From Candidatus Vampirococcus lugosii (GTDB taxonomy: Bacteria > Patescibacteriota > Gracilibacteria > Absconditabacterales > Absconditicoccaceae), in contig NZ_JAEDAM010000017.1 of NCBI RefSeq assembly GCF_018420025.1, positions 1 to 17,561 on the forward strand: a stretch of 17,561 nucleotides of DNA, written 5' to 3'. Shown one piece after another: positions 1 through 17,369 of the stretch. The first letter of the stretch is position 1; every line of letters begins with the position of its first letter. The translations under genes and the position numbers were made by a program. Below the pieces are notes generated by a model, which saw nothing but the letters and a program-made list of their open reading frames with translations, was not told the origin of the DNA and made no database searches.

Positions 1-454
1 ATATTACTTTATCATATTCATCTATCAATACTACTACCTGCTTTCCTGTTTTTTTGTATATTTCTTTTAACAAATATCATAAATTTATACTTTTTGTAAA
101 ATCATTTAATTCATATATTTTATCTTCTATATATATATTCAAATTATATTTTATAAATTCTTCTACATCTTCAAATTTATTATAACTTGCAAAACTTATA
201 TACACTACTGGATTTGTTTCTTCAAAATTTCGTTTATTATAAATATATGTATTTTGGAATAATTCTTTTTCTCACATATACAAATATTTTATCATTGATA
301 ATGTCAACGATTTCCCAAATCTTCTTGGTCTAGACAAAAAATAATATTTATTACTTATCAATAAATTATGTATTGTTTTAGTTTTATCTACATAGTAACT
401 ATTCCTTGTTATCAACTCTCTAAAATCTTGTATTCATATCGCTATTTTTTTCAT
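1..454 (-). CDS. AAA-ATPase-like domain protein (PF09820-type, normally fused to a PD-(D/E)XK nuclease domain); 3' end runs off the window
   Basis: Minus-strand ORF from the ATG at 452-454 to the window edge. Table-25 translation MKKIAIGIQDFRELITRNSYYVDKTKTIHNLLISNKYYFLSRPRRFGKSLTLSMIKYLYMGEKELF... matches the family N-terminal signature (IGIQDF..L....YYVDKT, then F.SRPRRFGKS/T). The Gly in IGI is a TGA codon. Confidence 0.8.
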
Positions 455-550
455 CTCTTTATTTTTTTAATATTACTAAATCTCTTTCATTATATTTTTT
501 TCTTTACCAAAATCAACATTTTTTCCTCGCTCACGGGTGAAATTATATTT

Positions 551-1576
551 TTAAAGTTTCAATATTCTATTTTCAGAAATTACATATAAAAAATCATCTT
601 TAGAAATAATATAATTTTTATTATAATATATATTATTATCTTTATAATTTCTTATTCATATAATATTAACATCTTCTTTTAAATAATTACCTATCAATTC
701 CCATAATTGTTTACCAGTCCATTTTTCATCTAATTCTACTTGATAAATTTCTTTACCAAATCTATTGTCTAATAATTCATATATAATATCACTAACATTA
801 TCAGTTAATGATCTTACAAACAATCTATGTCATATTAGATTAGAATTTATAACTTTATTTACTCAAGCTTTTTGAAATAAAATAATATTTTTATCATCTT
901 TTATTTCGGATAATATATATATTTTTTCGTTTTTTATTCTAATATTCATAATATAAGCCAAAGTATTTTTATCTGCTTGATCATTATTTTCAGATAATAT
1001 TATAAAATTTTTGGCATTTGTTATATTAGACTTATATAAAGATTCATCATTTTCAGGACTACCAGCTACAAAATAAACATCTATTCATTCTCATTGTAAA
1101 TTCAAAATACCATTAGGTATTTTATCTAAATTTGATAAAAAAACTATTTTAGTCTTATTTTCATTATAGAGTTGTCTTATTATGCTATAAGTACTATATT
1201 TTGCTTCTCAATATACAATACTATGATTTCAAAAATTTATAGATAAAGTTCAATTCATTTTTTTTTCATTATTTGTAAATAATATATTTGTAATTTTTAT
1301 AGCTATATCTCAAATTATTCATAAAGTCAAAAGAATATATATCATAGCTAAAAACTGTCATAAATATGTTATAGGATATTTATCTCAATATCATATAGTT
1401 GTAGATGTAATAAAAGCCCACCATAAAATATCCCACCAAGAAGAAAAATATTCATTATTTCATTTTTCAACTAAATATATTAATATAACTAATAAAAACA
1501 TAATAAATAATATAGAAAAAACAGTTTTATTAGTTTTAATCTTATTTCAAATATTTTTAAGTAATACAAAAATCAT
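551..1576 (-). CDS. Two-TM potassium channel with a C-terminal RCK/TrkA_N-like domain (MthK-like)
   Basis: 341 aa, length divisible by 3, first ATG after an in-frame TAA. The N-terminal TM helix is followed by a pore region [22 protein letters not shown]. Its canonical T-x-G-Y-G-D filter has both glycines encoded by TGA (1382-1402). The cytosolic part HSIVYGEAKYSTYSIIRQL...VYFVAGSPENDESL resembles an RCK domain. The gene starts 21 bp after the dnaX stop. Confidence 0.9.
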
Positions 1577-1597
1577 TAGTAAAAATTACTATATAAA

Positions 1598-2848
1598 TTA
1601 ATCAATTTTTATTAAATCAATTTTAATTTCAATTTCTTTATTAAAAATTTTATTCAATATTTTTTTTAATACTTGTAAATTTTTTTCGTTTGTAATTACT
1701 GCATATTGAAATTCATTTGACACATTCATATGTAGATATCAATTTTGAAAAGATTGAATACTTGAATACCTTTTCAAAGCTGTTTTTAAAGAAGTAGAAT
1801 CAATATTTTGAACTATTTTTTCAATTAAATCATCATTTTTATCTATTCATTCATATTTTGTTGTAAAAAATTTAGATAACTCTTTTTTGTAAAGAATAGT
1901 ATTTATAGGATAAATTTTGGAATCTTTAATAATATTTATCATACAATCAGATAATTTAGTATAAAGTTCTTGATCTTCCAAAAAATGTTCATCACTATAT
2001 ACAATTATTTGTTTTGCAAAATCTATCAAATCTATTCATCAATTAGAAATTTTTTGTAATAATTCAAAACTAGATTTTAAATCTAAATTTTTAATATATT
2101 CAATAAATTCTATAATTGTAGAATTTCAAACAATTCATAAAAATTTAATAACATTATCTTCAGTAATTTTTTCAAAAAAGTTTATTTGTTCCAAATACTT
2201 AATTGAATCTCTCATAGCTCAATCAGAATTTTGTGCTATCAAATTTAAAGCTTGTTTATCATAATTATATCATTCTTGCTCACAAATATAAGATAATCTT
2301 GCAGATATATCATCTATATTTAATTTTTTAAAATTAAATACTTGACATCTAGAAACAATAGTATCTTTTATTTTATTTATTTCAGTAGTAGCTAATATAA
2401 AAAATAAATATTCAGGTGGTTCTTCCATTATTTTTAATAATGCATTAAAAGATGAGCTTGAAAGCATATGTACTTCATCTATAATATAAACTTTTTTCTT
2501 CAAAACAGAAGGTGGATAAAAAGCTTTATCTATAATTTCTTTTCTTATATTATCTACTTGTGTGTGAGATGCAGCATCTATTTCTACAAAATCTATATTC
2601 TTATTTTCATTTATACTAATACAAGAAAAACATTTATTACAAGGATTTCAATTTTTAGGATTTTGACAATTAACTGCCTTTGCCAAAATTCTAGCAACAC
2701 TAGTTTTTCAAGTTCATCTAGATCAAAAAAATAAATAATTACTGATTAATTTTTTATTTATTACTTGATATTGCAATATATCTATAATATGTTTTTGATT
2801 TACTACCGTATCAAAATCTCTGGGACGATATTTTATATATAATGACAT
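1598..2848 (-). CDS. dnaX: DNA polymerase III subunit gamma/tau (short form, 416 aa)
   Basis: MSLYIKYRPRDFDTVVNQKHI; Walker A FGSRGTGKTSVARILAKAVNC (three Gly = TGA); Zn module CNKCFSC; KVYIIDEVHMLSSSSFNALLKIMEEPPEYLFFILATTE; IVSRCQVF; SDGAMRDSIKYLEQ. The standard-code ORF 2270..2503 is an internal fragment of this gene. Confidence 0.95.
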
Positions 2849-2886
2849 AAATTATTTATTTATAAATAAAAAAACTATATATAAAC

Positions 2887-2914
2887 TATATATAGATTTT
2901 ATTCTTTTTTTCAA
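2887..2914 (-). promoter_or_regulatory. Candidate sigma70-like promoter for dnaX (TTGAAA, 16-nt spacer, TATATA) inside a recurring AATTGAAAAAAA motif
   Basis: The minus strand reads aaaTTGAAAaaaagaataaaatcTATATA. The TTG lies 66 nt upstream of the dnaX ATG. The same motif and spacing recur upstream of the sufD-like gene. In DNA this AT-rich, such hexamers also occur by chance. Confidence 0.25.
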
Positions 2915-3064
2915 TTTATTATTTATTTATTATTTATATTTTAAATAAATTAATTTATAAATAATATTCATTTTTATTTTTATTTTTCAAAAAATTATTT
3001 ATTAATTTTAATATACAAAACCAAATAAAAATTAGTTTAAATATTTAATTTACTATAATAAATT

Positions 3065-3298
3065 CTATTTACCACCAAAAGAACCTCATCATCGTGAAGA
3101 ACTTGAAGAACTTGAAGAATAATTTCTACATGTTCATACACAAGGTCAATAACTTGTAGAATATATCCAATCTATATTTGCTTTTCATGTTTTCATATCT
3201 ATTTGTTTAGATATTGGTTCAGGACTTTTTCCATAACTTATAAATCATATAACAGACCCCATAACTATACTTACGAAGAAAAGTATATAAATACTCAT
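3065..3298 (-). CDS. Small (77 aa) membrane-anchored or secreted protein with a Cys pair and a poly-Ser/Gly tail
   Basis: MSIYILFFVSIVMGSVIGFISYGKSPEPISKQIDMKTGKANIDWIYSTSYGPCVGTCRNYSSSSSSSSRGGGSFGGK. The ATG lies one base after the stop of the upstream gene, which suggests translational coupling. The N-terminus is hydrophobic. No family recognised. Confidence 0.55.
3096..3120 (-). repeat. 9-bp tandem repeat (gaagaactt x about 2.8) encoding the poly-Ser run of the 77-aa protein
   Basis: The plus strand reads gaagaactt gaagaactt gaagaat. On the coding strand this is (AGT TCT TCA)n. Confidence 0.7.
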
Positions 3299-3299
3299 T

Positions 3300-4754
3300 T
3301 TATTCATTTAATTTTATATTATCTAGTAAATAATTTTTTATTATACCTCCACTATATGGATATTTTTTATTTCATATATAAATATCTCATTTTTTATCAT
3401 TATTATTGAAATAATTTATATTATTTTTATATTTTTCAAATTCATTTAATATTTTTTTATCTTCTTCAGTTTTTATAGAAAATTTTATTCAACTTATATC
3501 TTTAAATTTATTTTTTGTTCAACCATAATCATATTTTTTTTCTCAATCTGGTAATTTTAATATATTATTTTTATCAAAACTTATTTTATAATTTCAATTA
3601 TCTTGATTTTTAAATGAATATTCTTTTGGTCATATAAAAAAACTTAAACTTAAATATGCGAATAAAGCAGATAAAATTAAATTAAGTACAAAATATAATT
3701 TTATATTTTTTATTTTAAATTTAATATATAATACACAATAAGTAACAATAAGTATTAAGAATGATATAATCGGAGATATTCGTATAAGAAAAAGAGAAAG
3801 ACATATAACAACAATACTGGATATAATTATTAAATTATTTTTAATATCTTTTAAATTTAATAAGTTGTTTAATGGCTCATAACTATAAGACACTTCATTA
3901 TATTTATTTAAATATACTTTTTTTCTTTCATAAATTCAAACCTCTTTTTGTGTTCAAGAGGATTCTTTTTCAAGAATATAATCTTTTCAAGAATACGAAA
4001 AATAATAAAGAATAACTTCCTCTCAAATAGTATATGATTTAGTATTTTCTCAATAAATTTTTTCAACTTTAACTTGATTAATTTCATCTATAGTAATATC
4101 TCATTTATTAGTTTTTATATATCAAGAATTTATTTCTTGTATATCAAAAATAGGAATTATTTTCCAACTAAGTTCTGTTTCATCTTTTTTTCAAACATTC
4201 CAATATGCTCTTGATTCAGAAAGATAATTTATTTCTCAAGTTATATCTACAAGCAAATATTCATTATATTCCAAACCTCACAACTCATCCCCTTCTTTCC
4301 ATTCTCATTTATAATTAACTACAGAAGATATAGTATAATTCCTAGATTCTATATCTATATTTTTTCACACTCAAACATTATCAAGAAAAATTGATTTTAT
4401 ATTATGTTGTTGCCAAACGAATTTTGTTCAACAACTTTCACAAGCAAATTCAAGCTGTTTAGTTTCTCAATTTTTGTAATCTTGATAAATTTTTTTTACA
4501 TTTTCATTCATTCTCAAATAATTTCAACAACTTGTACATTGTATAGCTTTTCATCATATTTTTACTTTTCATTCTCTTTGTGAGTATTCTCATCCTTGTG
4601 AATCTTTACAAATGTTTTGATACATTTGTTTATATTTTTTTAGATATGGACTATCAGGTTCTTCTTTTTCTAAGGAAACTAAAAGATTTTGCATCTTATT
4701 GCAATCTTTATTTACATAAGCATCATATAAATCTTTTAGTATTGAAGAACTCAT
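3300..4754 (-). CDS. Membrane protein: N-terminal C4 zinc ribbon, two DUF4178-like beta modules, a TM segment, and a C-terminal domain of unknown function
   Basis: 484 aa, length divisible by 3. Zinc ribbon: IQCTSCGNYLRMN...LEFACESCGTKFVW. The modules YTISSVVNYKGEWKEGDELGGLEYNEYLLVDITGEINYLSES and YTIGEEVILYYFSYSGKDYILEKESSG resemble the DUF4178 pattern. Hydrophobic stretch: LIIISSIVVICLSLFLIRISPIISFLILIVTYCVLYI...LYFVLNLILSALFAYLSLSFFI. It sits directly downstream of a DUF350 gene, a known pairing. The DUF4178 assignment is from memory of the family and was not searched. Confidence 0.65.
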
Positions 4755-4781
4755 AAAATTAAAAATTAAAAATATTAAATA

Positions 4782-4991
4782 TTATCAGTGTATAGCAGCA
4801 GCTATTATTATAGCAATAGATATAAATAAACATCAAATTATAATTCATAAAGATACATTTTCATCTTCTATCAATTCTTTATGTAAAGACCAAGGAGTTA
4901 CTTTATCAAGTACGATTATTATTGTTACAAAAATTAATATTCAAATAAATATATAAACTAAACTTCATATTAAAACATTTGTGTCTAACAT
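4782..4991 (-). CDS. DUF350 (YjfL-like) small integral membrane protein
   Basis: 69 aa: MLDTNVLIGSLVYIFIGILIFVTIIIVLDKVTPWSLHKELIEDENVSLGIIIGCLFISIAIIIAAAIHG. This matches the DUF350 layout: a TM helix, then (D)xxTPxxLxxEIxExxNVAxxI, then a second TM helix ending AAAIH. Confidence 0.8.
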
Positions 4992-5055
4992 TATTTATAT
5001 AATTAATAAATTAAAAGTGTATATTCATTATAAATATTTTTTATTATTTATCAAA

Positions 5056-6003
5056 TTATTTTTGATTTTTTCTTAATTTATTAAGTTTATTTAATTTAAA
5101 ATAGCGAGCTAATTTATTTCATATACTTAAAACAAATCAATCATTATTTTTTATTTTACAAGTATCAAATATACAAATCACTTTTCAAGTATTGGAATTA
5201 CTTATTATATGTTTTCAATTTCAAAATCCTACAAATATTAAACCTTCATTTCATATACTTTTAATATTTCATATATTATTAAATACATATTGTTTTCAAG
5301 TATTTCAACTATTATTTTGATATCATTCATTATCACTATTGTCTTGTAATCATTTATTTCAAACATTATATTGTATTCATAAATTTACACTATTATTTTG
5401 TTCTCAAGAATTTGAAAAATTATATTGTTCTCAATTATTATAACTATTATTCTGTTCTCAAGAATTTAAAGCATTATATTGTTTTCAACAATTAGAACGA
5501 TTATTTTGTTTTCAAGAATTAGATTTATTATCTTGTAATCAATAATTAAAATCATTTTCTTGAATTCAACAATTAGCTACAATAAATTGATTTCAATTAT
5601 TTCAAATATTATATTGAACTCAATTATTTCAATAAATATGTTGAACTCAATTATTTCAATCATTATGTTGAATTCAATGATTAGCAATAATATATTGAGT
5701 TCAATGATTGTCAATATTATATTGTGTTCAATTATTATTTTTATTTATTTGTAATCAATAATTTAAAGAATTGTATTGTTCTCAATCATTTTCAAAACTG
5801 TATTTTCTTCAATAATTACATCTATTAATAAGTTTTGATTCAGACCAATCAGAATTATTTTTAAAATATTTTTTTTCTTGTTTATCTTCTTGACTTTCTT
5901 CATTTTCTTCATTTTCTTGAAGAACTAAACATATACTATAACTAAAATCCTTTTCATCAAAAATATCTAAATTTTCACATTCATTAAATTTTGTAGTTTC
6001 CAT
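5056..6003 (-). CDS. Nonapeptide-repeat protein (consensus G-x-Q-x-N-x-x-N-x, 21 units) with an acidic N-terminus and a basic C-terminus; no recognisable family
   Basis: 315 aa, length divisible by 3. N-terminus: METTKFNECENLDIFDEKDFSYSICLVLQENEENEESQEDKQEKKYF (this is the standard-code ORF 5809..6003). Repeats follow, for example GTQYNIDNH GTQYIIANH GIQHNDGNN GVQHIYGNN GVQYNIGNN ... GEQNNSYNN GEQYNFSNS GEQNNSVNL GIQYNVGNK. Tail: ...KLARYFKLNKLNKLRKNQK. No signal peptide or TM helix is evident. Confidence 0.75.
5245..5811 (-). repeat. 27-bp coding tandem repeat array (21 units, diverged): TGA nnn CAA nAT AAT nnn nnn AAT nnn
   Basis: Plus-strand tca (a minus-strand TGA) occurs at exactly 27-nt spacing at 5269, 5296, 5323 ... 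5782, 5809, with no exceptions (21 in-phase occurrences checked by coordinate). Confidence 0.9.
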
Positions 6004-6154
6004 AAATATGTAATTATATAGTAAAATTATAATAAAATTTATATAATTAAAAAAAATAAAATGTCAATAGATAAATATTATTTTTATATTTTCTATAAAA
6101 GTTTTTAAATAAATTTACTATAAGTCAAATAAAAAAATATATTATATAAAATAA

Positions 6155-7029
6155 TTAATTCATATTGTGCCAAATTTTTCAATTTGATAAAACAAAATAA
6201 GATTTTATATTATTTTTTTCACAAAATTCTTTTCATAAATCAAATCACATACTTAAAATACTTGTAGATAAAGAATCAGTTTTGTATGCAAATTTGTCCA
6301 AGACACTAATAGTTATTATATCAAATTTTTGATTTTTTTCTCAAGGAGTTTTTATATGATGAAATTTATTTCAATTATTATTTTTTCGTTTTCTTATATT
6401 AATTCAAGAACTTGATAAAGAACAATTTGTCAAAGAAAAGTTTATTAATTTATTATTTTGAAGTCAATTTGGAACTGAAACTATCCAATTTTTTCAATTT
6501 TGATTTTTCCCAGATACATATATATCACCACCAACATTAACTAAAAATTATTTACATTATTTAATTTCAAAAATTTAGCTATCAAATCAGACAAATATCA
6601 TTTTCCTATTGCACCAAAATCTAAATTCATACCATCTTGCAACACTACAGTATCTCAAAATATTCATATTTTATTAAAATCTAAATTTTCTTTATTTTTT
6701 TCAAAATCAAAATTATTTATTTCCCAAGATTTTCAATATCATATATTTGACAAATTTACCAAAGGATTAAAAAATCAATTAGTAAAATCATAAATTTCTT
6801 TAGATTTAATCAAAAGTCATAAAAAATCTTGATCTATTTTTAATTTTTTTTCATTATTTAATATAGACAAAAGAGAATTTGGAATAAATCTAGAATATTT
6901 TTTTTCAAAATCACTAGAAATTTGATAAACTTTTTTGATAAGATTATCAGCTTCTTTTTTGTCAGAAACAATTAAACTAATATGTAAAATAGAACCAAGT
7001 CATTTGAATACATATTTAAAAATTTTCAT
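6155..7029 (-). pseudogene. apbE: FAD:protein FMN transferase (ApbE family) split by a 1-nt frameshift in a T5 run. This could be a true pseudogene, a slippage-rescued gene or a homopolymer assembly error
   Basis: Frame A (7029 to 6541) reads MKIFKYVFKGLGSILHISLIV...FNPLVNLSNIGYG...LDFGAIGKGYLSDLIAKFLKLNNVNNF and ends at TAG. Frame B (6547 to 6155) reads FLVNVGGDIYVSGKNQNGKNWIVSVPNG...NKFHHIKTPGEKNQ...DKFAYKTDSLSTSILSMG. Adding one T to AATAATTTTTAG gives a continuous ...NNFLVNVGGDIY, the canonical ApbE motif. Confidence 0.8.
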
Positions 7030-7084
7030 AATTATAAATTAAAGCTTTTTATAAATAAGTTTTTATTAAAATTAAATAATTTAT
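7029..7084. repeat. 56-bp inverted repeat, copy A (partner at 14352-14407)
   Basis: taattataaattaaagctttttataaataagtttttattaaaattaaataatttat. Its reverse complement recurs at 14352-14407 with 55/56 identity. Copy A abuts the apbE start codon. Confidence 0.9.
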
Positions 7085-7282
7085 ATATAATAAATATTAT
7101 TAACAATTCAATATTAAAAGTAATTTATATTTTTTTATTTATTTGATATATCAATATTTTTTAAAATAATTTGAAACTTTGCTAGAAAAGATTATATAAG
7201 TTCTATAGAATACATAAAACAAATATCTGTTCTAATTAATTTTCAATTACGACAAATAAAGACTTGATTTAAGAAAATGTAT

Positions 7283-7317
7283 AAAAAAAACTACAAATTG
7301 TAAATTATTTGTAGTTT
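7283..7317 (-). terminator. Rho-independent terminator after the ftsL-like gene
   Basis: The stem ctacaaat (7291-7298) pairs with atttgtag (7307-7314) around an 8-nt loop. On the minus-strand transcript it is followed by U8 (plus-strand A8 at 7283-7290). It lies 17 nt downstream of the stop at 7331-7333. Confidence 0.65.
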
Positions 7318-7330
7318 AAATTTGAAATTA

Positions 7331-7723
7331 TTAGTTATTACTTGTAAGTTTAACTTCAGTATTTATATAAATAATTCTATCATTTACAGTAAGTCATTGA
7401 GGTTGTTTTCATACATTATTTTGTTTAAATCATGAATTATCTTGTATATCTTGCCAAACTTTTTTTTGTGCTCTTAATACTTCCAACTGTACCAAACTAT
7501 GAGAGAATTTTTCTTCTTCCAAAATCCCCATCTCTTGTCTCAAAAAATATCATTTAGTTGAACTAATATTTACAAAGAACAAATACGACAATATTACAGA
7601 TACTAATATCATAGATATTGTTACAAGTTTCAATTGATTTATTAATCTACGATTTTTTTTAACATTATTTTTAATTTCTATATATTTTTTTGATATACTT
7701 TCAACAAAAACAAATTTATTCAT
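7331..7723 (-). CDS. FtsL-like bitopic cell-division protein (tentative)
   Basis: 130 aa: MNKFVFVESISKKYIEIKNNVKKNRRLINQLKLVTISMILVSVILSYLFFVNISSTKGYFLRQEMGILEEEKFSHSLVQLEVLRAQ... It has a single TM helix followed by a coiled-coil-like stretch, and starts 20 bp downstream of rsmH, the classic ftsL position. The call rests on architecture and synteny only. Confidence 0.55.
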
Positions 7724-7743
7724 TTATTACATAAATATTAATA

Positions 7744-8616
7744 TTATAAAGCCTTTATTATTCTCAATTTTGCACTTCTAGAAGCATTATTTTTTTGTAT
7801 TTCTTGATAAGAAGGTTTTATTACTTTTTTGTTTATGAGTTGAAAGTTTCCAATTCTAGATTTATCCTTAAATTTATATTTTACTATTCTATCTTCTATA
7901 CTATGATAAGTTATTATGAAACATTTTCATCCAGAATTCAAATATGAACCAAAATTATCCAAAAATTTTTCCAAATGTCAAAGTTCATTATTTACTACAA
8001 TTCTAACACATTGAAAGACTACAGATATTTTTTTAGTTCACAATCAAATATTTTTTAATAAATTAACAAAATCAAATGTAGTAGATAATTTAGATTTTTT
8101 CCTTTCTCAAATTATACAATCTGCCATATAATCAGCAAATTTTGTAGTAAAATCTCAATATTTATTAAAAGCTTGAGAAATATCAGATCTATTTCAATTA
8201 TTCAAAAAATCGTAAGCAGAATATTGCGAACTACTATCAAATCTCATATCTAGATTTCAATCTTTTTTTATAGAAAAACCTCTATCTGACAATTTGAAAT
8301 GATCCATATTTACTCATAAATCAAGTAGTATTCAATCAAATTTTTTATCTCATATGTTTTTGGAAATATTTTCCAAATCTGAATAATTATTATTTTGAAA
8401 AATTATTTTATCTCAAAATGAAGTTAAATAAGATTTAGCTTTTTTTAACATTTGTGCATCTCTATCAACCGCAACAAATAATGTATTATCAAAATTTCAA
8501 TTTGAAAAAAAATACTCTATATGTCATCAGTGTCAAATAGTTCAATCCATAAATACAGACATATCCTCTGATAAATTTTCTAATATTTCTTTTGCTAAAA
8601 CTGGAATATGTCTCAT
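7744..8616 (-). CDS. rsmH: 16S rRNA (cytosine1402-N4)-methyltransferase
   Basis: 290 aa: [15 protein letters not shown]...FMDGTIGHGGH (four TGA glycines)...AVDRDAQML...GILLDLGVNMDHF...[16 protein letters not shown]...[14 protein letters not shown]...[18 protein letters not shown]...[14 protein letters not shown]. Confidence 0.95.
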
Positions 8617-8950
8617 TTTAAATAAATTAATCTAAATAATAATTATACAAATAATTTGAAAATAAAACCTCAAAAACATCATAGTTACTATATACTCAAT
8701 AAATTTAAAAAGTCAAAACATTATAAAAAAATAATAATTGACTTTTTATTAAAAGTATTTATTTTATATTTAAAGTCATTTTTCATAAAATTACTAACTT
8801 AAAGAAAAAAAAATTAAGGTTAAAATACTTTTTTGAGATGAATAATTTTATTTTAAATATAATTAAAAATATTTTAAAAACTATATTTAATTTGTTTTTT
8901 TAATAAAAATAATTATAAAACTAGATATTTTATATGAATAAATTTTGTTG

Positions 8951-10519
8951 ATGAAAAAAAAATATTATTTTATATTAATTTGATTGTTTTTTTTATGGTG
9001 AATTTTTTTGAGATTTTATAATTTATGATGAGCAAGTTTTTGGATAGATGAATGATATAGTAGTATTACTTCTTATTATTCTTTACAAAATAATTTTTTG
9101 CCTTTATTGCAATCTGGTAGATATGATTTTAGTCAATATTTTTTTACTTTATCTCAAAATTTATCTTTTTCTATATTTTGATATAGTGATTTAAGTGCTA
9201 GAATTCCATCTTTTGTTTTTTGAATATTACTTATGATTTTGAGTACTTTATTTGCATATGAACTACTTAAATGACATAAATATAAATATATTTGAGTTTT
9301 ATTTATAAGTTTTCTATCTTATTTTTCTACTTGGCAAATTATTTGGTCTAGAGAAGCTAGATTTTATGAATTACTTGCTCTTATTTTGTTGTTTTGAGTA
9401 TATTTATTATATAAATTTGAAATATCTAAAAAATGAATTTATTTTTTGATTTTTTCAATAATAGCTTGAATAGGAAGTATTTATCATCCTTTTTTATTAT
9501 CGCTTTTTGCTATATGATGAATTTATTTAATATATTTTTTTGTCAGTAAATTTATTATGTCAAATTATGATAAAACTATTATTAAAAAAAATTTAAAATA
9601 TATTTTTATGATATTTTGATGATTTTTATTTTATTTATCAATTACTAGTTTATTTAAATATATCACAAATTGATGAGTTGATATTTGAAATATTGTACCA
9701 AATACTTTTGATTTACCACAAAATTTAAAAGAAAATTATATTAATTTTTATAATAATTTATTATTAGAAGAATTATGAATTTTGCATATATTTTTTATAT
9801 TTTGATCTTTTTATTTAGCTTATATTAGAAAATATTTTTATTTGATAATATTTTTATGAACATTTTTGATTAATTTTTTTGTTATTTCTCAAAAATGAAT
9901 AATGCTTCATTCTAGATATATGTATCATATATTTAGTATTATAACTATATTTGGATCTTATATTTTTTTTATTTTTATAAGTTATTTATATGACAAAAGT
10001 ATTTGATTCAAAAATAAAATATATAAAATATTGTTATATATATTTATAATATTTTTAAATTTTAGTTTATTTTATAGTTTCAATATTAATCTACTACCTA
10101 AAAATGTTTATTATATAGATTATACTTCACCAAAACCCAATTTTAAATCAGCTTATAATTTTGCAAAAAATAATTATCCTAATACCAAAATAATATCATG
10201 AATGCCACAATTATGTGTATGGTACAATATAGAAAATAAAAATATTTGTCAATATTCTATGAGAGTTAATCTTACTTGAAAAAAATCAGCTAATGAAAGA
10301 CTTATACAAGAAACAAATCATAATTATACTGCTATTCCTTATATAAATAACATATCTCAAATATGAAATAATTTATTTATACTTGATGATTTATCTTTAA
10401 GAATGAGTATTAATAAAGAAATAATTGACTATGTATTAAATAATTGTAATAAAATATTTGAAGATATTTGAAACGAAAAAAAATATAATTACATTTGAGT
10501 TTGGAAATGTAAAAATTAA
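8951..10519 (+). CDS. GT-C fold membrane glycosyltransferase, family 39 / ArnT-PMT-like
   Basis: 522 aa. The frame was checked codon by codon along every line. MKKKYYFILIGLFFLWGIFLRFYNLGGASFWIDEGYS carries the GT39 signature (R.yNLg..s.w.DE). About 10 or more TM helices follow, then a soluble C-terminal domain. Confidence 0.8.
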
Positions 10520-10550
10520 GTTAATAAAAAATAAATAATATTTTAAAAAA

Positions 10551-11144
10551 TTAAATTTTGATAATATATATTTCTTTACTTTCTTTCCTCGTAGATTTTG
10601 GTTTAAAAGTTTTTATTGATTTTGATCAATAAATCTTTTTTAGATCAGACAAAAATTCTTCAAATCAAGGTCCCATAAATATTTTTATTACAAATTTTCA
10701 TTCATATCAGAGATATTTTTTGTAGATAGGTAAAGTTTTTTCTATAAGAGCTATAGATTTGATAGCATCCAAGTCTTTAATTCAAGTAGTATCTGGAGCC
10801 ATATCAGATATGATAATATCAAATTTTTCAATATTAGATTCTTTCAATATTTTTTGTACATTATCAAAATCGGAAATATCTTGTTTGTATGTAAAAACAT
10901 TTTCCAAGTTTAATGAAACTTCTTTAAGATCAAATCAAATTATTTTGTAATTTAAATTATTGTTTATCTTGTTCCAAGTATATTGTATCCAACTTCATGG
11001 TGAACATCATATATCCAAAACTTTTTTAATAGTTTTATCAAAAAGATTAAATTTTTGATCAATTTCTTCAAGTTTAAAAACACTTCTAGCTTTATATCAA
11101 GATTTTTTAGCTTTTTTGAAATAATAGTCGTATGGATTATACAT
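10551..11144 (-). CDS. rlmE: 23S rRNA (uridine2552-2'-O)-methyltransferase (FtsJ/RlmE)
   Basis: 197 aa: YYFKKAKKSGYKARSVFKLEEIDQKFNLF...VLDIGCSPGSWIQY...IIISDMAPDTTGIKDLD...GKFVIKIFMGPGFEEF...KTFKPKSTRKESKEIYII. These are the canonical FtsJ motifs. Confidence 0.9.
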
Positions 11145-11164
11145 ATATATTTTTAAAAAATAAA

Positions 11165-11575
11165 TTAATCATCAAGTCACAAATCATCAAAATCATCAAT
11201 TTTTCAATCATTTATATATTTGTGAATTGCATTCCTAGTAGCCAAAAGTCAAAGCAATACTGCCCTATTTCTTCTAGAACTAACTTGCATTCATAATTCT
11301 TCTCTCATAAAATCTAAATCCCATGCAAGAATTTCTTGCAAATCAATTCATTGAATTTCTTCAGCAAGTAAACTTACTGCTGTAGTAGTTATCATAGAAG
11401 TATCTCAAGTAAAACTAAATTCTTTTATTTTATTATTTTCTATTTTCAAAAAAACATTTATTCAATCACCACAAACTGGATTTCATTCTTGATAAGAAAT
11501 ATCAAAATCTTTCATTTCATAATTATTAACTGGATTGCTTGAATAATCTTGAATCAATGTAGCAATATCAAACAT
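11165..11575 (-). CDS. IscU/SufU (NifU N-terminal) family protein retaining only the first of three ligand cysteines
   Basis: 136 aa: ...IQDYSSNPVNNYEM...GNPVCGDGINVFLKIENNKIKEFSFTGDTSMITTTAVSLLAEEIQG...VSSRRNRAVLLGLLATRNAI. NPxCGD is intact. The G-x-G-C-x-I-S position reads GDTSMIT, and the R-x-x-C-A position reads RNRAVL. Confidence 0.7.
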
Positions 11576-11602
11576 AACATTTTATTAAAAAAATAAATCT
11601 AA

Positions 11603-12271
11603 TTAATTATTGATATAATCAAAAAATTTATTTGAAATATTTTCATTATTTAAATTTTCATTAAAATTATTTATATAAGAACTAATAATAAGATTATAAT
11701 AAGATTTTAAATCTATTCATTTGGAACAAATATAAAATTTATCAAATTCATTTAATTTTGAAATACTTGCTCAATGACTTGCTTTTACATCATTACAAGA
11801 AACATTTAATGTAGGAGTAATATTGCTCGTTCAATTATCTGTCAAAAACACTGTTTTTTGATTCAAATATCATTCTGATTTATAAGAATCAAAATCAATA
11901 AATACATTTCAACTAATATTTATTACTCATCAATCATCACATAATCATATAATTTCAGTATTTGAATAAATTTCTTTATTTAATAAATTAATAGATAAAT
12001 TTCAATTTATTTCTTCTTTATTTTTGGAAAAAGAAAGAGATTTGATATTTACACAAGATTCTCAAGATAATATATCTATTTTTATATCAAAATTATTTTT
12101 TCATACAATTCATAAATTGTAATTTATATTAGCTGGACAAGATATTTTTATATATCTTTTAGTTTCATTATTTACCAAAAAATCTATAATTAAAATATTT
12201 TTTCAATCCAAAACTTCAATATATTGCTCAGAATTGTTTATATAATAAATTCAATCTTCAAAAATTTTCAT
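11603..12271 (-). CDS. Short SufB/SufD-family protein (C-terminal beta-helix region only)
   Basis: 222 aa. TPTLNVSCNDVKASHGASISKLNEFDKFYICSKGIDLKSYYNLIISSYINNF matches the SufB/D C-terminal signature (P.L.i..ddVkcsHGatvg.ld.e.lfYL.sRGi....A..l). It is about half the usual SufD length. Confidence 0.7.
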
Positions 12272-12309
12272 ATTTTTATGAAATTATTTTCTAAAAATAC
12301 TAGTAAATA

Positions 12310-12337
12310 TTTATAAGAATTATATTTTTTTTTTCAA
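12310..12337 (-). promoter_or_regulatory. Candidate promoter for the sufD-like, sufU-like, rlmE operon (TTGAAA, 16-nt spacer, TATAAA)
   Basis: The minus strand reads taaTTGAAAaaaaaaatataattctTATAAA. The TTG lies 66 nt upstream of the ATG at 12271. It is embedded in the 20-mer T10-CAATTAAAAA (12325-12344), which recurs identically at 14897-14916. Confidence 0.3.
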
Positions 12338-12429
12338 TTAAAAATAAATAGATTTTTTGATTTTAAAACTTGATTTATTTAAAAAATTTATTAATAATAA
12401 GTTGTTTATTATAAAATAATTAATTATAT

Positions 12430-13017
12430 ATGAAAATATATTTATTTTTCAAAAAATATTATGTAGCTATGTGATATAAATTAGCTATGTTTTTATCAAA
12501 ACAAAAAATGCATCCAAATACTGCTAGTTTAATTTCTATATTTATTATTTTTCCTATGTTTTTTTTTATAGATAATTATATTTATAATAATTTATTATTA
12601 ACTATATATTTATTTATTGCCATAAATATAAAACTTATTTTAAATGCAATTGATTGAATAATTGCTAGAGATCAAAATATAAATACAAAATTTTGAATGT
12701 TTTTAAATGTATGAACGGATATATTACCTGATTTATATATCATATATATAATTTTGAATAAATTATGAGTAGATATTTTTTTAATTTATTATATATTATT
12801 GATAATTATTTTTTATTTTATATTAGAAATATTATTTATATATTTGTATAATAAACAAAATATTTTTATATGATGAAAAGAATCTAGAACATTTTTTTAT
12901 TTATTAATATTAATTGTATGATATTTTAATTTTAATTATAATATTTTATTATATTTTTATATATTTATAACTATTTTACATAATGCTTGATTTTTTATTA
13001 AAAAATATAGAAATTAA
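12430..13017 (+). CDS. CDP-alcohol phosphatidyltransferase family protein (divergent motif)
   Basis: 195 aa from the first ATG of the ORF; alternative starts are at 12469 and 12487. HPNTASLISIF is followed by LNAIDGIIARDQNINTKFGMFLNVGTDILPD. This fits DG-x2-AR-x8-G-x3-(D)-x3-D, but Asn occupies two of the four Asp positions by my manual alignment. Multiple TM helices. Confidence 0.7.
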
Positions 13018-13693
13018 TTTACTTATTTTATTTTTTATTATAGCTTTTATTTGTTTTGTAAGTATCAAAAATGATTATATTCATGAAAAAATTAAATGAT
13101 GGATATATATAATATTATTTAGTTTTTTGTTATTTATAAACAATATTACTTTAATATTATCTTTAATCATTATTTGAACGGTTGCAATTTATGAATTTAT
13201 AAAAGTTTTGAAGTTTTCATTGATAAAAAATATAATATATTGATCAATATTTTTATTTTTATTAATATGATTTTTGTATTTTATGTATATGAAAGTAAAT
13301 TTATTTTTTTATTTGTTTATTATTTTATCTTTTTCTGATATAATAGCTTATTTTGTTTGAAAATGAATAACATGGAAAAAATGATTTACTAAACTGAGTC
13401 CAAATAAATCACTTAGTTGAGTTATAGCTCAAATATTTTTTATATTTATAATACTTATAAATATACTTGTATTTATTTTGGAAATAAATATTTTTTATTC
13501 TTTATTTATATCATTATTTATTTGATTTTTGGGACCAATATGAGATTTGATTGAATCATATTTTAAAAGAAAATCTTGAATAAAAGATATGGCTAATTAT
13601 ATACCTTGACATTGATGATTATTAGATAGAATTGATTCTATTTTTTTGAGTGCATGAATTGTATGACTTATTTATTTTTTTATTAGTTTTTAA
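12983..13693 (+). CDS. cdsA: Phosphatidate cytidylyltransferase (CDP-diglyceride synthase)
   Basis: 236 aa: ...SFSDIIAYFVGKGITWKKGFTKLSPNKSLSGVIAQ...[44 protein letters not shown]. This is the canonical CdsA C-terminal signature. It overlaps the upstream gene by 35 nt in another frame. Confidence 0.85.
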
Positions 13694-13695
13694 CT

Positions 13696-14340
13696 ATGTT
13701 TTTCCCAGATATAAAAAGAAATGATATATGGCAAAATTGACACAATAAATTATGTAGTATAGAAAAAAATTGAAATAAATTTATTATTGAAAATATAAGA
13801 GATTTTGATCATGAAAATAATGAATTTAATTATATAAATAAAATATATGATTTAGAAAATTTGGAAAAAATTATATTACATTCTTGTCCTTTTTGATTTA
13901 AAAAATTATTTTCACATTTGATAATAGAATTTTGTTTTTCATGAGAAAAAAGTTTATTTTTATCAGTAGAATCAAGAAGACAAGAATGAGAATGATTCTC
14001 TATAATTAAATGATGTTTTAGACATTATGGTTTGATATTTGTTTGGTGAACAAAAAAAGATTTAATACATTTAAGAACAAAAATAAGAAAAACAAAAATT
14101 GAAACTTATGAATTAATGTTTGATGATAAAAAAATGAAAGAATGATTTCTATATTTAATAGAAAAAACTAATTCTCTCATACAAAATCCTAAATATTATA
14201 ACTCATTTTTTTGTAATTGTGTAACTAATTTATATGATGTTTTGAAAATATATTCAAAAAAAAATATAAAATTTTCATCAAATATAATCTTTTCTAGCAA
14301 AGTTCCAAATTATTTAAAAAAATATTGATATATCAAATAA
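13696..14340 (+). CDS. DUF4105 (Lnb N-terminal domain-like) protein
   Basis: 214 aa: FIIENIRDFDHENNEF...SHLIIEFCFSGEKSLFLSVESRRQEGEGFSIIKGCFRHYGLIFVWGTKKDLIHLRT...ETYELMFDD...NPKYYNSFFCNCVTNL. This follows the DUF4105 pattern (vRNf.y...aHt.lsF.f....l.iSvE.R.e.ge.ys...g.fr.yeL.yv...e.D....Rtn...Y.L...P..Yn....NC.T). It starts 2 nt after the cdsA stop. Confidence 0.7.
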
Positions 14341-14351
14341 ATAAAAAAATA

Positions 14352-14407
14352 ATAAATTATTTTATTTTAATAAAAACTTATTTATAAAAAGCTTTAATTT
14401 ATAATTA
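14352..14407. repeat. 56-bp inverted repeat, copy B (partner at 7029-7084)
   Basis: ataaattattttattttaataaaaacttatttataaaaagctttaatttataatta is the reverse complement of 7029-7084 with one mismatch. It covers the last 11 sense nt, the stop codon and the 3' flank of the minus-strand gene 14394..14828. Confidence 0.9.
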
Positions 14408-14828
14408 AAGATAAAAAAATTATTAAAGCAAAAAAACTTAAGATACTATAAGACCAAATCTTAATAGATAATTTGTAGTATAACATTTTAGTTTCTTTAT
14501 CTATTGTGTCTTTACATCTATATTTAATTAATATAATATAAATTATACTTGCAACTAATAATGTAGTAATTAATGCACTTAATAATGTAGTAATTAATAT
14601 TTCTCATATTCATCAACTTAACTGTAAATCATTTAATAATATATTTAAAATGGGTAATAATATTATAGATAATAAATTTATTAATAATAAATCTATTATC
14701 GTACTTTTATAACTTAATTTTATGTTAAAAGTAATTAAATGTTTATTTTTAATTAAAATAATATTATAAAAAAAATAAATAAGTCAATTAATCAATAATG
14801 TTACTAAAATAAGTGGTATCTCTAGCAT
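14394..14828 (-). CDS. Hypothetical polytopic membrane protein (144 aa)
   Basis: MLEIPLILVTLLINGLIYFFYNIILIK...LLLINLLSIILLPILNILL...GEILITTLLSALITTLLVASIIYIILIKYRC...IWSYSILSFFALIIFLSLIIN. Length divisible by 3, about 4 hydrophobic helices, no family recognised. It contains a 24-bp internal duplication (LITTLLSA / LITTLLVA). Confidence 0.5.
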
Positions 14829-14880
14829 ATCATTTGTATTATTAATTAAATTTAAAATTCATTTGATGAATTATCAAATT

Positions 14881-14909
14881 AATATATAGTTTTTACTTTT
14901 TTTTTTCAA
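14881..14909 (-). promoter_or_regulatory. Candidate promoter for the 144-aa membrane protein gene (TTGAAA, 17-nt spacer, TATATT)
   Basis: The minus strand reads taaTTGAAAaaaaaaagtaaaaactaTATATT. The TTG lies 81 nt upstream of the ATG at 14828. It shares the identical 20-mer with the 12325-12344 site. Confidence 0.3.
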
Positions 14910-15085
14910 TTAAAAAGCCATAATTTTTTATTGTCAAATACAATAATATTTATTGAAATAAAAATCTTCAAATCATAATTCTCATTATTACTAAATATCA
15001 AGATTTAGATAGAATCATTACTCAAGATAAATTTATTTTAGTTTGACTCAAATTCTTAATCTAAAAATTTTGTACATAAAATATA

Positions 15086-15118
15086 AAAAAATCTCTGTTT
15101 TTGAAACAGAAATTTTTT
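15086..15118 (-). terminator. Rho-independent, bidirectional-looking terminator after gdh
   Basis: The stem tctgttt (15094-15100) pairs with aaacaga (15104-15110) around the loop ttg. It is flanked by an A-run upstream and T6 downstream, which can extend the stem. On the minus transcript the hairpin is followed by a U-run. It begins 28 nt after the gdh stop. Confidence 0.65.
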
Positions 15119-15138
15119 AAAATTGTATTTTTATTAAA

Positions 15139-16378
15139 TTATTTTCATTTGATATTTATTGCTTGCAATATTCTATCCAAAGATAAAATATAAGAAGAAT
15201 CTCTCAAAGAGATAGATAATTTACTTGACATATCAAAAACATCTTTTGTTGATTTTTCCATTTGTTTTTTAAGTTTTTGATCAACTTCAATTTCTTCCCA
15301 ATAATAATTTGCATTATTTTGTACTTGTTCAAAATAACTAACCAAAACTCAACCAGCATTTGCAAGTATATCTGGAATTACTGTAATTCATTTTTTTTGA
15401 TAAAATATTATCAGCTTGCATATTTATAGGTCCGTTTGCCAACTCCAATACAATATTTGATTTAATATTATCAGCATTTGATTCTGTTATTTGATTTTCT
15501 AATGCAGCAAGTATCAAAATATCTACATCTAATTCAAGCAATTCTTCATTTGTCAAAATATTAACATTTTCATATTCTACTACGGATTTTTTATTATCTT
15601 TTATAGATTTTATTAAATCAAGATTTAATCATTCTTCAGAATATATTCATCATTTGCTATCAGATATAGCTGTTAATTTAGCTCATGAATCAGTTAAATA
15701 TTTAACTATATTAATACCAGCATTTCAAGCTCATTGAATAGCAATTTTTTTTCATTTCAAATCATAATTTTTTAATTCCAAGATTTTATTAAGAACAAAA
15801 AATCATCATCTACTTGTGGCTGTATCTCTACCAATAGATCATCAAACTTGTATAGGTTTTCATGTAAAACTTCAAGGATTATTATTATTTGATAATTTAC
15901 TATATTCATCCATCATCCATGCCATTATTTGAGGAGTAGTTCAAACATCTGGAGCTGGAACATCGTAATCAGGTCATAAATATCTTGATAGTTTTCTTAC
16001 ATATCATCTTGAAAGTTTTTCTAATTCATTATCAGAGAGACTTTTAGGATCTACAATTATTCATCATTTAGCACCTCATAAAGGAATTCAAACTAAAGCA
16101 GTTTTCATACTCATCCATACTGATAAAGCTTTAGTTTCATCCATAGCAACTCATTGATGAAATCTTATTCATCACTTATATGGACCTCTTACATTATTAT
16201 GTTGTGATCTATATCATACAAAATTTTTTACTTCTCAGTTATCCATTTCAACATTAATATTTACTTGTATAACACGATCTGGATAAAGTATATATTCTAA
16301 ATCATTTTTTGTAAATTTATTTTCCAAATATTCAAATGATTTTTTTATTTGATTTTGTGCATTTTCAAAAGAAGACAT
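15139..16378 (-). pseudogene. gdh: Glutamate dehydrogenase (Glu/Leu/Phe/Val dehydrogenase family) interrupted by one extra base in an A8 tract. This could be a pseudogene, a slippage-rescued gene or an assembly error
   Basis: The span is 1240 nt (3n+1). Upstream frame: MSSFENAQNQ...RSQHNNVRGPYKGGIRFHQ...MSMKTALVGIPLGGAKGGIIVDP...APDVGTT...IAIQGAGNAGINIVKYL...LELANGPINMQADNILSKK. After the run TCAAAAAAAATGA (plus-strand T8 at 15391-15398) the homology continues one frame over: [33 protein letters not shown]...LQAINIKGK. The standard-code ORFs 15338..15556 and 15145..15345 are the two sides of the break. Confidence 0.85.
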
Positions 16379-16470
16379 ATTTTTTTATTTTAATATATAA
16401 ATGTGATATTAATATTATCAAATTTAAACTAAAAATATATAGCAAATATTAAATAAAATATTTTTTTATT

Positions 16471-17276
16471 TGTAGTTGAAAAATAAGTTGAAACTCATCT
16501 TTATAAACAAAAAATAGTTAGCTTTGTAGTGGAGAATATTATTGTATTTTCTCTTGAGATTATAATTTTTTTCATTATATTAAATATAATATTTATTATC
16601 TTTTATTATTTTAAGTAATAATAATCATAATATGTTTATTAAAAAAGTACTCATAAATATAATTGAAAAACTTATATCACTCATCATATTGTTGAATCTT
16701 TTAGAAATAAAGATATAAAAAAAGTAAAACATAATGTTTCACATGGATACAAAAAACTACCTTACATAAAAGACGATAAAGAAAAAATTAAAGAATATTT
16801 ATTTGTATGAATTGATGATTTTAGTAGAGAACTTTATGTTCATATTGCAACAGACAAAACCTAATCTTCAGCGACAGAAGCTCTAGCACAATTTATTGAT
16901 GAATGTCCTTATATTATTGAATGTCTATATACAGATAATAGTAAAGAATATAAGTGAACACCAGATCATGAACTTATGAAATATTGTCTTGAAGCATGAA
17001 CAAAGAAAAAATACACAAAAGTAAAAAGACCACAAACAAATGGTAAAGCTGAAAGAGTAATAAGAACATTAATGGATATGCGACATAGTAAAGAAACATT
17101 TATTTCAAGAGAAAATAGAAAAAAGTCTTTAAAAAGGTTTGTAAATCGATACAATTGTGTTAAACTTCATAAATGAATTGATAATAAAACACCATATGAA
17201 ATTATAGATGAGTTTTATCACTGAAAATAAAAAAACTGTAAACAACTCTACCATTTCTTAAAAATTTTGAAATACA
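16471..17276 (+). mobile_element. Decayed, internally shortened IS481-family insertion sequence relic (boundaries tentative)
   Basis: It contains the degraded DDE transposase listed below. The putative terminal inverted repeats are TGTAGTTGAAAA (16471-) and the reverse complement of the right end, TGTATTTCAAAA (-17276), matching at 10 of 12 positions and starting TGT as in IS481 elements. The roughly 0.8 kb length is shorter than an intact IS481 element. No convincing target-site duplication is visible in this AT-rich flank. Confidence 0.4.
16734..17230 (+). pseudogene. IS481-family DDE (rve) transposase, C-terminal catalytic part only, with one frameshift and one in-frame TAA
   Basis: MFHMDTKK is followed by a frame change at the A6 run 16751-16756. 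Then LPYIKDDKEKIKEYLFVGIDDFSRELYVHIATDKT, TAA (16862-16864), SSATEALAQFIDECPYIIECLYTDNSKEYKG...KRPQTNGKAERVIRTLMDM...RFVNRYNCVKLHKGIDNKTPYEII. The D, D and E positions (hMDtKK, TDNsKEY, TNGKAER) are recognisable. The N-terminal HTH region is missing, and the upstream frame carries two further TAA codons. Confidence 0.8.
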
Positions 17277-17297
17277 AATTATTTTAAAAAAAATTAG

Positions 17298-17325: not shown

Positions 17326-17369
17326 ATATCTAAAACTATAAATCGTATATTTAAAATGAATTAACATTT

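Follow-up and report, generated by a model that had tools for sequence, protein, structure and literature searches.

A tandem nonapeptide-repeat gene of Candidatus Vampirococcus lugosii and the small protein family to which it belongs

Candidatus Vampirococcus lugosii is an Absconditabacteria-related epibiotic predator of Halochromatium in which UGA serves as a glycine codon (PMC8080830). We analyzed a 17,561-nucleotide stretch of its genome (contig NZ_JAEDAM010000017.1, positions 1 to 17,561; hereafter the window), whose G+C content is 18%, and in particular a minus-strand open reading frame (ORF) that runs from an ATG at 6003 to a TAA at 5058-5056 and carries a long array of nine-residue repeats (Table 1). 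This gene, the target gene in what follows, contains zero TAA or TAG codons in its frame 0 and 7-51 in each of the remaining five frames, and mononucleotide shuffles of its sequence gave a mean of 30 in-frame stops with a minimum of 15. It had been singled out earlier from the DNA letters alone (the original prediction), and the coordinates, the count of 21 units, their consensus and the exact 27-nt spacing of TGA given at that time were all reproduced on minus strand 6003..5056. The gene is invisible under the standard code, as had also been foreseen. Rfam and tRNA scans of the window were empty. As judged from the sequence evidence set out below, the feature is a stand-alone protein-coding gene that is probably expressed, and it is almost certainly a real gene that represents a new family.

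The array consists of 21 consecutive units of 27 nt (5811..5245), every one of them opened by TGA. Tandem Repeats Finder independently returned a period of 27 at 5287-5736 and 5749-5817, as well as periods of 54 and 108. Conserved nucleotide columns form whole codons: TGA in 21/21 units, CAA in 19-20/21, and AAT both at position 8 (21/21) and at position 5 (15-20/21). For each of the remaining columns, the most frequent base was counted in 6-19 of the 21 units, mostly in 8-17. Gln3 is found in 19 of the 21, being missing from the first and the last unit, and the second TGA glycine that had been predicted at position 7 of several units was counted in six. A 22nd in-phase unit begins with GGT, so that the glycine register goes on with a standard glycine codon. 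The 18-residue super-period that had been proposed stood as a local feature: position 4 of units 11-20 reads D-N-Y-N-Y-N-Y-D-N-Y, and Tandem Repeats Finder gave a period of 54 at 5290-5548. It did not stand as a family-wide trait: when units were compared at their variable positions, those two apart were no more alike (identity 0.15) than adjacent ones (0.17). A Tyr/Asn alternation like that of the target occurs near the C-terminal end of the array in L179, one of the relatives described below, and not in the other four homologues.

Table 1. Features of the target gene and its surroundings in the window, and sizes of the repeat arrays at related loci
Feature	Position	Strand	Remarks
Coding sequence	5056..6003	-	315 codons and TAA, table 25 (32 TGA = Gly)
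N-terminal region, aa 1-64	5812..6003	-	acidic, varies between homologues, no signal peptide; ends in degenerate pre-unit SKLINRCNY
Array of 21 nonapeptide units, aa 65-253	5245..5811	-	consensus G-x-Q-[YN]-N-x-x-N-x
Conserved C-terminal domain, aa 254-300 (GLIFVGFGNGKHIISNSNTGKVICIFDTCKIKNNDGFVLSIGNKLAR)	5104..5244	-	alignments A1 and A2
Basic tail, aa 301-315 (YFKLNKLNKLRKNQK)	5059..5103	-	predicted cationic amphipathic helix together with the preceding SIGNKLAR
Exact TTGACA (-35-like), 64 nt upstream of ATG	6062..6067	-	sequence match
-10-like TATATA/TATAAA, 16-18 nt past TTGACA	6038..6045	-	read from sequence
DUF350 small membrane protein MBS8121825.1	4782..4991	-	same strand, 64 nt past the target stop
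Relative L177			16 units
Relative L179			34 units
Relative L188			20 units
Relative L241			at least 24 units; 5' end cut off
Relative L252			at least 16 units; 3' end cut off
Relative L257 (the P0122 locus)			5 units; retrieved with a profile of the other members

Relatives and the conserved C-terminal domain

Relatives were sought at the DNA level in metagenome contigs, with a pattern three and a third units long that required TGA, CAR and AAY in register, and five true relatives (L177, L179, L188, L241 and L252) were present among the 110 matches. In the protein collections (5.8 billion protein clusters; 1.84 billion representatives), the family amounts to three short entries with Trp in place of Gly: a search with the target sequence alone gave no match, one with the family profile A1 matched P0122 only, and exhaustive phmmer searching with P0122 added only P0123 and P0124. 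We take the family to comprise the target, L177, L179, L188, L241, L252, L257/P0122 and P0123. The earlier proposal that homologues should be sought for variation in repeat number was borne out, with relatives carrying 5 to 34 units. A scan of reference genomes with K-G-N for Gly yielded collagen-like and GNQ repeats and no relative among the matches listed, a pattern scan of viral contigs gave chance out-of-frame matches only, and no family member lies within 10 kb of rsmH in Absconditicoccus praedator and two other relatives of the organism. The 315-residue target product is absent from the protein collection, as is the 41-residue product of a GTG start at 5181 (the only other canonical in-frame start of testable length), and the neighbours on both sides are present. 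The GenBank record may nevertheless hold a coding sequence in the target interval, because the accession series from the DUF350 gene to apbE has a gap at one number, MBS8121826.1 / WP_213348696.1.

BLASTP matched the target to its homologues with E = 1e-38 to 1e-55, and members to one another with 1e-38 to 1e-69. The last 12 units and everything downstream of them align free of gaps over 180 columns, with a mean column identity of 67%. From 134 units the family consensus is G-[EK]-Q-[DN]-N-S-[G/W/F/Y]-N-[K/N/E], with Gly in 121 and Asn5 in 124, Gln3 and Asn8 having served as selection criteria when units were counted. By this count, 19 contiguous units of the target carry both Q3 and N8; the in-register arrays run to 16-34 units in the five homologues with long arrays and to 5 in L257. 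There is no insertion or deletion across 131 contiguous units. Proline is absent from all 1179 array residues, compared with 1.8% in the other proteins of the window. The target is a divergent member, with Tyr, His or Phe at position 4 where the family consensus has Asp or Asn (Asp4 in 54 of 134 family units and in 2 of 19 target units). Conservation of the frame in related genomes had been named in advance as a point on which the coding interpretation turned, together with a concentration of substitutions at the x positions; the frame is kept in the homologues, and change is indeed concentrated at those positions.

The arrays lead into a C-terminal domain of ~55 residues, whose pattern G.I.S....G.I...FG.G.H.I.N...G.....FDT.....N.G....IG....R is common to all complete members. 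The nine-residue glycine register runs three units into this domain, with Gln3 replaced by Ile, Ile and His. Units flanking the arrays on the C-terminal side read GxIxS, GxIxxxFG, GxHNI and GxVxxIF, and on the N-terminal side GIIDN, with Ile, His or Val for Gln3; past the register-keeping units there are three obvious beta-strands (in L241, KIIAIF, TVISVF and KVISI). Profile A2 matched the target with 112.7 bits (E = 5e-33) and has 23 invariant columns in six sequences; run against all loci collected, it matched the six complete family members and no others. The domain had no Pfam, NCBIfam or PDB match. Beyond it, in all seven tails, the last 20-28 residues are positively charged (net +5 to +13) and amphipathic as a helix (hydrophobic moment 0.64-0.87), and the tail is helical in an AlphaFold model of P0122, with a predicted local distance difference test score (pLDDT) of 54-73. 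These two elements, which the original prediction had overlooked, characterise the family no less than the repeats.

Upstream of the arrays the members are unrelated, save for a degenerate first unit with Ile or Phe for Gln (for example G-I-I-D-N-K-Y-N-N in L179). The acidic N-terminus, basic C-terminus and lack of a signal peptide that the original prediction had described for the target agree with net charges of -9 over aa 1-64 and +10 over aa 254-315, and with a maximum hydropathy (KD19) of 0.68 and no hydrophobic N-terminal segment. No signal peptide or transmembrane segment was found in any of the seven members. An exact TTGACA stands at -64, -62, -59 and -61 from the ATG in four of the six family genes with an intact 5' end (binomial p ~5e-5) and is followed in these genes by a -10-like hexamer, L188 having a perfect TTGACA-N17-TATAAT. 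The -10 box of the target was not listed by the consensus scanner because its last base is A.

These data bear on whether the array could be a noncoding 27-bp satellite, or whether the true gene could be an antisense ORF on the plus strand (5105-5443). Tandem arrays can hold frames open by descent, and the codon-aligned antisense frame has no stop in L241 and L257 and one in L177 and L252. In the window, however, 7 stops interrupt that frame, as do 10 in L179, and the sense frame is the sole one of six without TAA or TAG across all seven family genes, non-repeat ends included. Conservation at the protein level extends to the C-terminal domain, which is not repetitive; TGA is exchanged in register for GGN; and it is the sense side that has the conserved promoter box. 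We rejected both readings, which are very improbable, on the strength of the BLASTP matches, the gap-free alignment, the single open sense frame and the upstream TTGACA.

No Pfam, NCBIfam or PDB family fits the target, in agreement with the earlier statement that no family was recognised. In an hmmscan against Pfam at E <= 10 it met only MCM10_OB and Collagen, both far below cut-off, and the homologues gave the same result. The signature of the collagen-like adhesins (Scl, Lcl; PF01391) was not found, glycine occurring at every ninth residue and not every third; NCBIfam collagen-like matches reached 28-33 bits against cut-offs of 325-500 and are periodic noise. The nearest described profile is phrog_4433, a short-period match to the array only (profile positions ~125-228), with E = 2e-6 for the target and 5e-6 for L188. 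This profile was shown to correspond to the DUF7666 family, a true member of which scores E = 1.6e-143 and whose phage and prophage proteins occur, for example, in Haemophilus influenzae, Anaerovorax, Phascolarctobacterium and their phages; DUF7666 itself (PF24703) is absent from the target and its homologues, and was found in two of the carrier loci, L012 and L019 (E = 1e-37 and 7e-35). The two architectures are alike in that an N-terminal part is followed by ~20 strict nine-residue units that grade into a C-terminal domain, and they share G1, a frequent Q3 and N8 (G-[DYN]-[QRW]-S-A-A-T-N-T compared with G-[EK]-Q-[DN]-N-S-x-N-x). The DUF7666 repeats differ, however, in having small Ser, Ala or Thr where the family has Asp, Asn, Ser or aromatic residues, and the C-terminal domains are unrelated. 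The likeness may be convergent. In L012 (5794-6828, Haemophilus influenzae), L013, L019, L110 and L008, ~20 N-T-G-[DYN]-[QRWY]-S-A-A-T repeats lead from DUF7666 to the C-terminal domain, and this array is itself outside every Pfam model.

Some further arrays and duplications were observed at the loci collected. L148, L190 and L223 (Ga0310695, Ga0247609; GC 0.15-0.17) carry near-perfect 27-nt arrays of I-N-K-G-I-Q-I-[CYF]-[HK] with TGA in phase, and L170 (7334-8161, a marine metagenome contig of GC 0.37) carries ~30 near-identical [GR]-[EQ]-Q-S-N-S-P-N-S units with TGA at many starts. None of these has the C-terminal domain of the family, and the L170 array, which contains proline, may be either a distant relation of the family or an unrelated satellite. 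In L177 (498-1313 and 1306-2154, minus strand), the upstream region and first ~16 codons of the repeat gene (MLGQIESNPEATGQSK, after ...LKNIK) recur at the start of the adjacent HD-domain gene, which looks like a copied promoter and 5' cassette. In L257, ~130 nt of the 5' part of the short member are repeated 700 nt downstream (359-487 and 1064-1186); after the second copy come three repeat units and then an RluA-like ORF in another frame (ORF 1104-1343), a partial tandem duplication of the family gene.

Glycine codons and the reassigned TGA

Elsewhere in the window, in-frame TGA falls on invariant glycines of the DnaX P-loop (GSRGTGKTS), of RsmH (DGTIGHGGH) and of the dinucleotide fold of glutamate dehydrogenase (GDH; GAGNAG), which sustains the original view of the target as a coding gene read with table 25. 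The RsmH encoded in the window matches that of Candidatus Vampirococcus lugosii at 100% identity. Universally conserved glycines in motifs of PyrH, Der and thioredoxin reductase are also encoded by TGA. On the L179, L241 and L252 contigs TGA stands at invariant glycines of housekeeping motifs, and on L188 it serves, less often, as an in-frame sense codon. At 10 of the 121 repeat-initial glycines in the family, GGA or GGG takes the place of TGA, in register, which confirms the amino acid and indicates that the codon itself is not conserved. Since TGA stands at invariant glycines and UGA has been published as a glycine codon, table 25 is correct and table 4 is excluded.

The reading that table 4 would give, with TGA as Trp and a repeat of the form W-x-Q-x-N-x-x-N-x, is the one found in entries P0122-P0124; the public gene calls of these three short relatives carry W at the position in question, and so do Logan reads of the same organism. 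It is refuted by the universally conserved glycines at TGA in the six proteins named above, by the exchange of TGA for GGA, GGG or GGT in register within the family, and by the published genome analysis, which gives UGA as glycine (PMC8080830). Furthermore, RsmH entries P0002 and P0001 are 94% identical, and the 17 TGA among 290 codons explain the 6% gap, from which it follows that the W entries are table-4 miscalls. We give the Trp reading practically no weight.

The original prediction had presented the invariable use of TGA for the repeat-initial glycine as a special trait. This was not upheld, as codon usage and AT-richness explain it: in the 16 other ORFs of the window, TGA accounts for 223 of 259 Gly codons (86%). 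At this background the chance of 21/21 TGA is 0.043, and for the whole target gene (32 of 34 Gly codons) the comparison with the background gives a Fisher p of 0.28. The TGA monopoly of the repeat glycines is at most marginally meaningful and is largely codon usage.

On L188 (PDWI01016123.1), TGA encodes 22 of 29 glycines in the repeat gene, 18 of 137 in its neighbours and 6 of 111 in htpX, map and ftsK. A gene-specific preference for TGA in this repeat gene was considered and rejected, since another AT-rich neighbour, unrelated to the repeat gene, has TGA at 7 of 9 glycines; TGA use thus reflects how AT-rich a gene is and the shared ancestry of the units. The contig shows two composition classes, housekeeping genes of ~40% GC with TGA at ~5% of Gly codons and AT-rich genes (g1344 and the repeat gene) of 23-25% GC with TGA at 76-78%, and suggests a strong influence of the composition or origin of each gene on how often the reassigned codon is used.

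Proposed fold and location

The invariant residues are spaced at i, i+2 and i+4 (G1, Q3 and N5), plus N8, and position 7 is aromatic or Gly. We propose that positions 2-7 of each unit would form a beta-strand of six residues, and that Asn8-x9-Gly1 would make the turn that closes it. Gln3, Asn5 and the aromatic residue 7 would share one face and, as successive units stack, build up ladders of Gln, of Asn and of aromatic side chains, so that the array would be either a rigid beta-solenoid (two sheets, two units per turn) or a sheet of stacked beta-hairpins, with unit number setting its length and hydrophobic terminal units capping it. Zero proline and constant unit length fit a regular stacked strand-turn repeat better than a flexible linker. 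Such a repeat is also favoured by the short members P0122 and P0123, which have Phe or Ile exactly at positions 3, 5 and 7, and the change of Gln3 to an aliphatic residue at both ends of the array favours a capped one. Parallel and antiparallel stacking are both compatible with the data; the solenoid would be favoured by the 18-residue period, seen locally in the target and L179 and not in the family lag statistics. From these sequence patterns, we put the chance of a regular beta repeat fold at about even. The original prediction had guessed at a metal-independent, RTX-like beta-roll; the anatomy described here favours, more broadly, some regular repeat of beta-strands and turns.

Curli CsgA (S-x5-Q-x-G-x-G-N-x-A-x3-Q) is a strand-turn-strand beta-solenoid with Gln/Asn ladders, built of 19-23-residue units and secreted through Sec and CsgG. 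With its recurring Gln, Asn and Gly it is the closest mechanistic analogue for the proposed fold; unlike the family, it has a hydrophobic core, and its units are longer. Pfam Curlin_rpt gave no match to the target.

As to location, the absence of a secretion signal from every member makes the protein probably cytoplasmic. The cationic C-terminal helix might tether it to membrane or nucleic acid, and a role as scaffold or spacer, possibly tied to envelope or cell division, is our guess. A cytoplasmic scaffold, tethered to membrane or nucleic acid and with a length that depends on unit number, is the most economical one, given the lack of an export signal and the cationic amphipathic C-terminal helix; a membrane-tethered scaffold in the cytoplasm is nonetheless doubtful and is offered tentatively. 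The analogue for this role is provided by the bactofilins (PF04519), cytoplasmic beta-helices of ~18 residues per turn with Gly corners and a terminal membrane-targeting amphipathic segment, often acting in division or morphogenesis. They differ from the family in their hydrophobic core, their fixed number of about six windings and an anchor that is N-terminal and not C-terminal, and the bactofilin/DUF583 model gave no match at E <= 10 with the whole proteins or with the C-terminal domain alignment.

Several observations weigh against the proposed fold and role. The arrays are extremely polar, with a grand average of hydropathy (GRAVY) of -1.34 and Asn plus Gln at 36-42%, and most predictors would call a composition of this kind disordered or prion-like. 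AlphaFold applied to P0122 with W for G gave a pLDDT of 48, uninformative for the repeats. Among PDB sequences the family profile (A1) matched Spt5 only, in its C-terminal repeat region (CTR), whose nonapeptides are disordered (8qsz chain Y, residues 953-1055, E = 6e-12). Nei-Gojobori pN/pS among members is 0.35-0.99; with saturation and AT bias taken into account, this argues only weakly for purifying selection. No operon partner is conserved across loci. Division genes lie nearby at some of them (ftsL two genes off in the window, ftsK adjoining in L188, ftsA three off in L252), a link that is post hoc and a weak lead.

The polar composition, with 28% Asn, 12% Gly and 12% Gln in the family arrays, is what would be expected of an intrinsically disordered, prion-like array rich in Gln, Asn, Gly and Tyr, which would act as a flexible spacer, or be condensate-forming or aggregation-prone, with only the C-terminal domain and tail folded. 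The Sup35 PQGGYQQYN repeats and the Spt5 CTR serve as models for it: they resemble the family in a period of nine (Spt5), in W-N-x-G / N-x-G spacing and in their richness in Gln, Asn, Gly and Tyr. The low-confidence AlphaFold model, made from mistranslated input, has no beta structure in the repeats, and unit number varies as widely as 5 to 34. Spt5 and Sup35 repeats are, however, eukaryotic, proline-containing and disordered, act as phosphorylation or prion domains and share no flanking domains with the family, and the Spt5 match is periodic and compositional. Disorder also sits poorly with the complete lack of indels and proline in the family arrays, with conserved residues in a strand-like i/i+2/i+4 pattern, and with hydrophobic substitutions exactly at those positions in the short members and terminal units. 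Strict periodicity alone leaves disorder possible, as C-terminal domain (CTD)-type repeats are strict too. We consider a disordered array somewhat unlikely, and take the stacked strand-turn repeat with its tethering tail as the best explanation overall, at a probability of about one half.

An exported fibre or adhesin of the cell surface would place the array outside the cell, its repeat number setting its reach and its export being of a non-Sec kind, for example by an RTX-like C-terminal signal. Vampirococcus has a thick fibrous surface, and the 20-100 nm that separate neighbouring cells, or the epibiont from its host, are filled with fibrous material (PMC8080830). In placing a conserved C-terminal region after a nonapeptide array, the family recalls RTX substrates, and repeat number differs among relatives. 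On the other side, none of the seven members has a signal peptide, no transporter gene adjoins the gene at any locus, a 315-residue solenoid would reach only ~5-10 nm, and the authors of the genome paper ascribe the fibrous layer to giant membrane proteins of 1392-4163 residues (PMC8080830).

The RTX motif is also missing. RTX proteins form a calcium-bound beta-roll of nine-residue repeats with two units per turn. They are like the family in period, in an invariant Gly, in having about one hydrophobic or aromatic residue per unit and a C-terminal region, and in lacking an N-terminal signal peptide. They require Gly at positions 1, 2 and 4 and Asp at 6, three glycines per unit with a calcium-binding Asp, whereas the family has one invariant Gly, conserved Gln3, Asn5 and Asn8 and no conserved Asp. 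The RTX model PF00353 (HemolysinCabind) gave no match at E <= 10, and the motif GGxGxDxUx is not present. No type I secretion genes (ABC transporter, membrane-fusion protein) were found near the window gene, L179, L188, L241 or L252, and the host of the family, unlike that in the RTX case, is a single-membrane bacterium. We regard an exported fibre as quite improbable.

In its boldest form, the proposal of stacked strand-turn units would make the family a new structural class: a metal-free beta-solenoid or beta-arcade with stacked Gln, Asn and aromatic ladders in its core where other folds have aliphatic residues, acting as a soluble polar-zipper rod of tunable length, confined to bacteria that read UGA as glycine and serving these episymbiotic predators as a membrane-tethered cytoskeletal or spacer element, for instance in septation of stacked cells. 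So specific a combination is unlikely.

Neighbourhood of the gene and significance of the family

In the window, the target gene is flanked upstream by apbE and downstream by genes for the DUF350 protein and a zinc-ribbon membrane protein. Co-transcription of the target and the DUF350 gene is possible; this pairing is not kept in the relatives, whose neighbours are der and DUF2103 (L179), ftsK and a MazG-like gene (L188), dcd (L241 and L177), and a glycosyltransferase gene, rlmE and ftsA (L252). The 484-residue protein downstream of DUF350 (MBS8121824.1, 3300-4754, minus strand) has an N-terminal double CxxC zinc-ribbon-like segment and several hydrophobic helices, with no significant Pfam match.

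The window also has some irregularities of its own. ApbE (FAD:protein FMN transferase) is split by a frameshift at 6541-6547 into MBS8121829.1 and MBS8121827.1, and glutamate dehydrogenase changes frame after ...ADNILSKK (about 15338-15423); these are pseudogenes, or assembly or amplification errors. An inverted repeat of ~83-170 nt, 83-92% complementary (7029-7197 and 14282-14407), surrounds a 7.1-kb gene block from g13687 to ftsL, and two independent Logan contigs of the same organism, L121 and L122 (99.8-99.99% identical) end exactly inside both of its arms. The block might be able to invert, or it might be a chimera that arose when the genome was amplified (multiple displacement amplification, MDA, or multiple annealing and looping-based amplification cycles, MALBAC).

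About half of the proteins of Vampirococcus and of other candidate-phyla-radiation (CPR) bacteria are unannotated (PMC8080830), and the present gene illustrates an annotation blind spot: with TGA at every ninth codon, it is shredded by callers that use the standard code and mistranslated by table-4 models, which put in Trp. This leaves three short and wrong sequences as the only representatives of a conserved family. The target is a tandem nonapeptide-repeat protein of a solid conserved family, which appears to be small and undescribed and has so far been met only on low-GC contigs, metagenome-derived for the relatives, that read TGA as glycine. If the repeats fold as proposed, they would constitute a natural solenoid of polar Gln/Asn ladders, of interest to amyloid and prion structure and to the design of repeat proteins. 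Even if they are disordered, the family would provide a lineage marker for Absconditabacteria-like genomes and a candidate part of their unusual cell biology.

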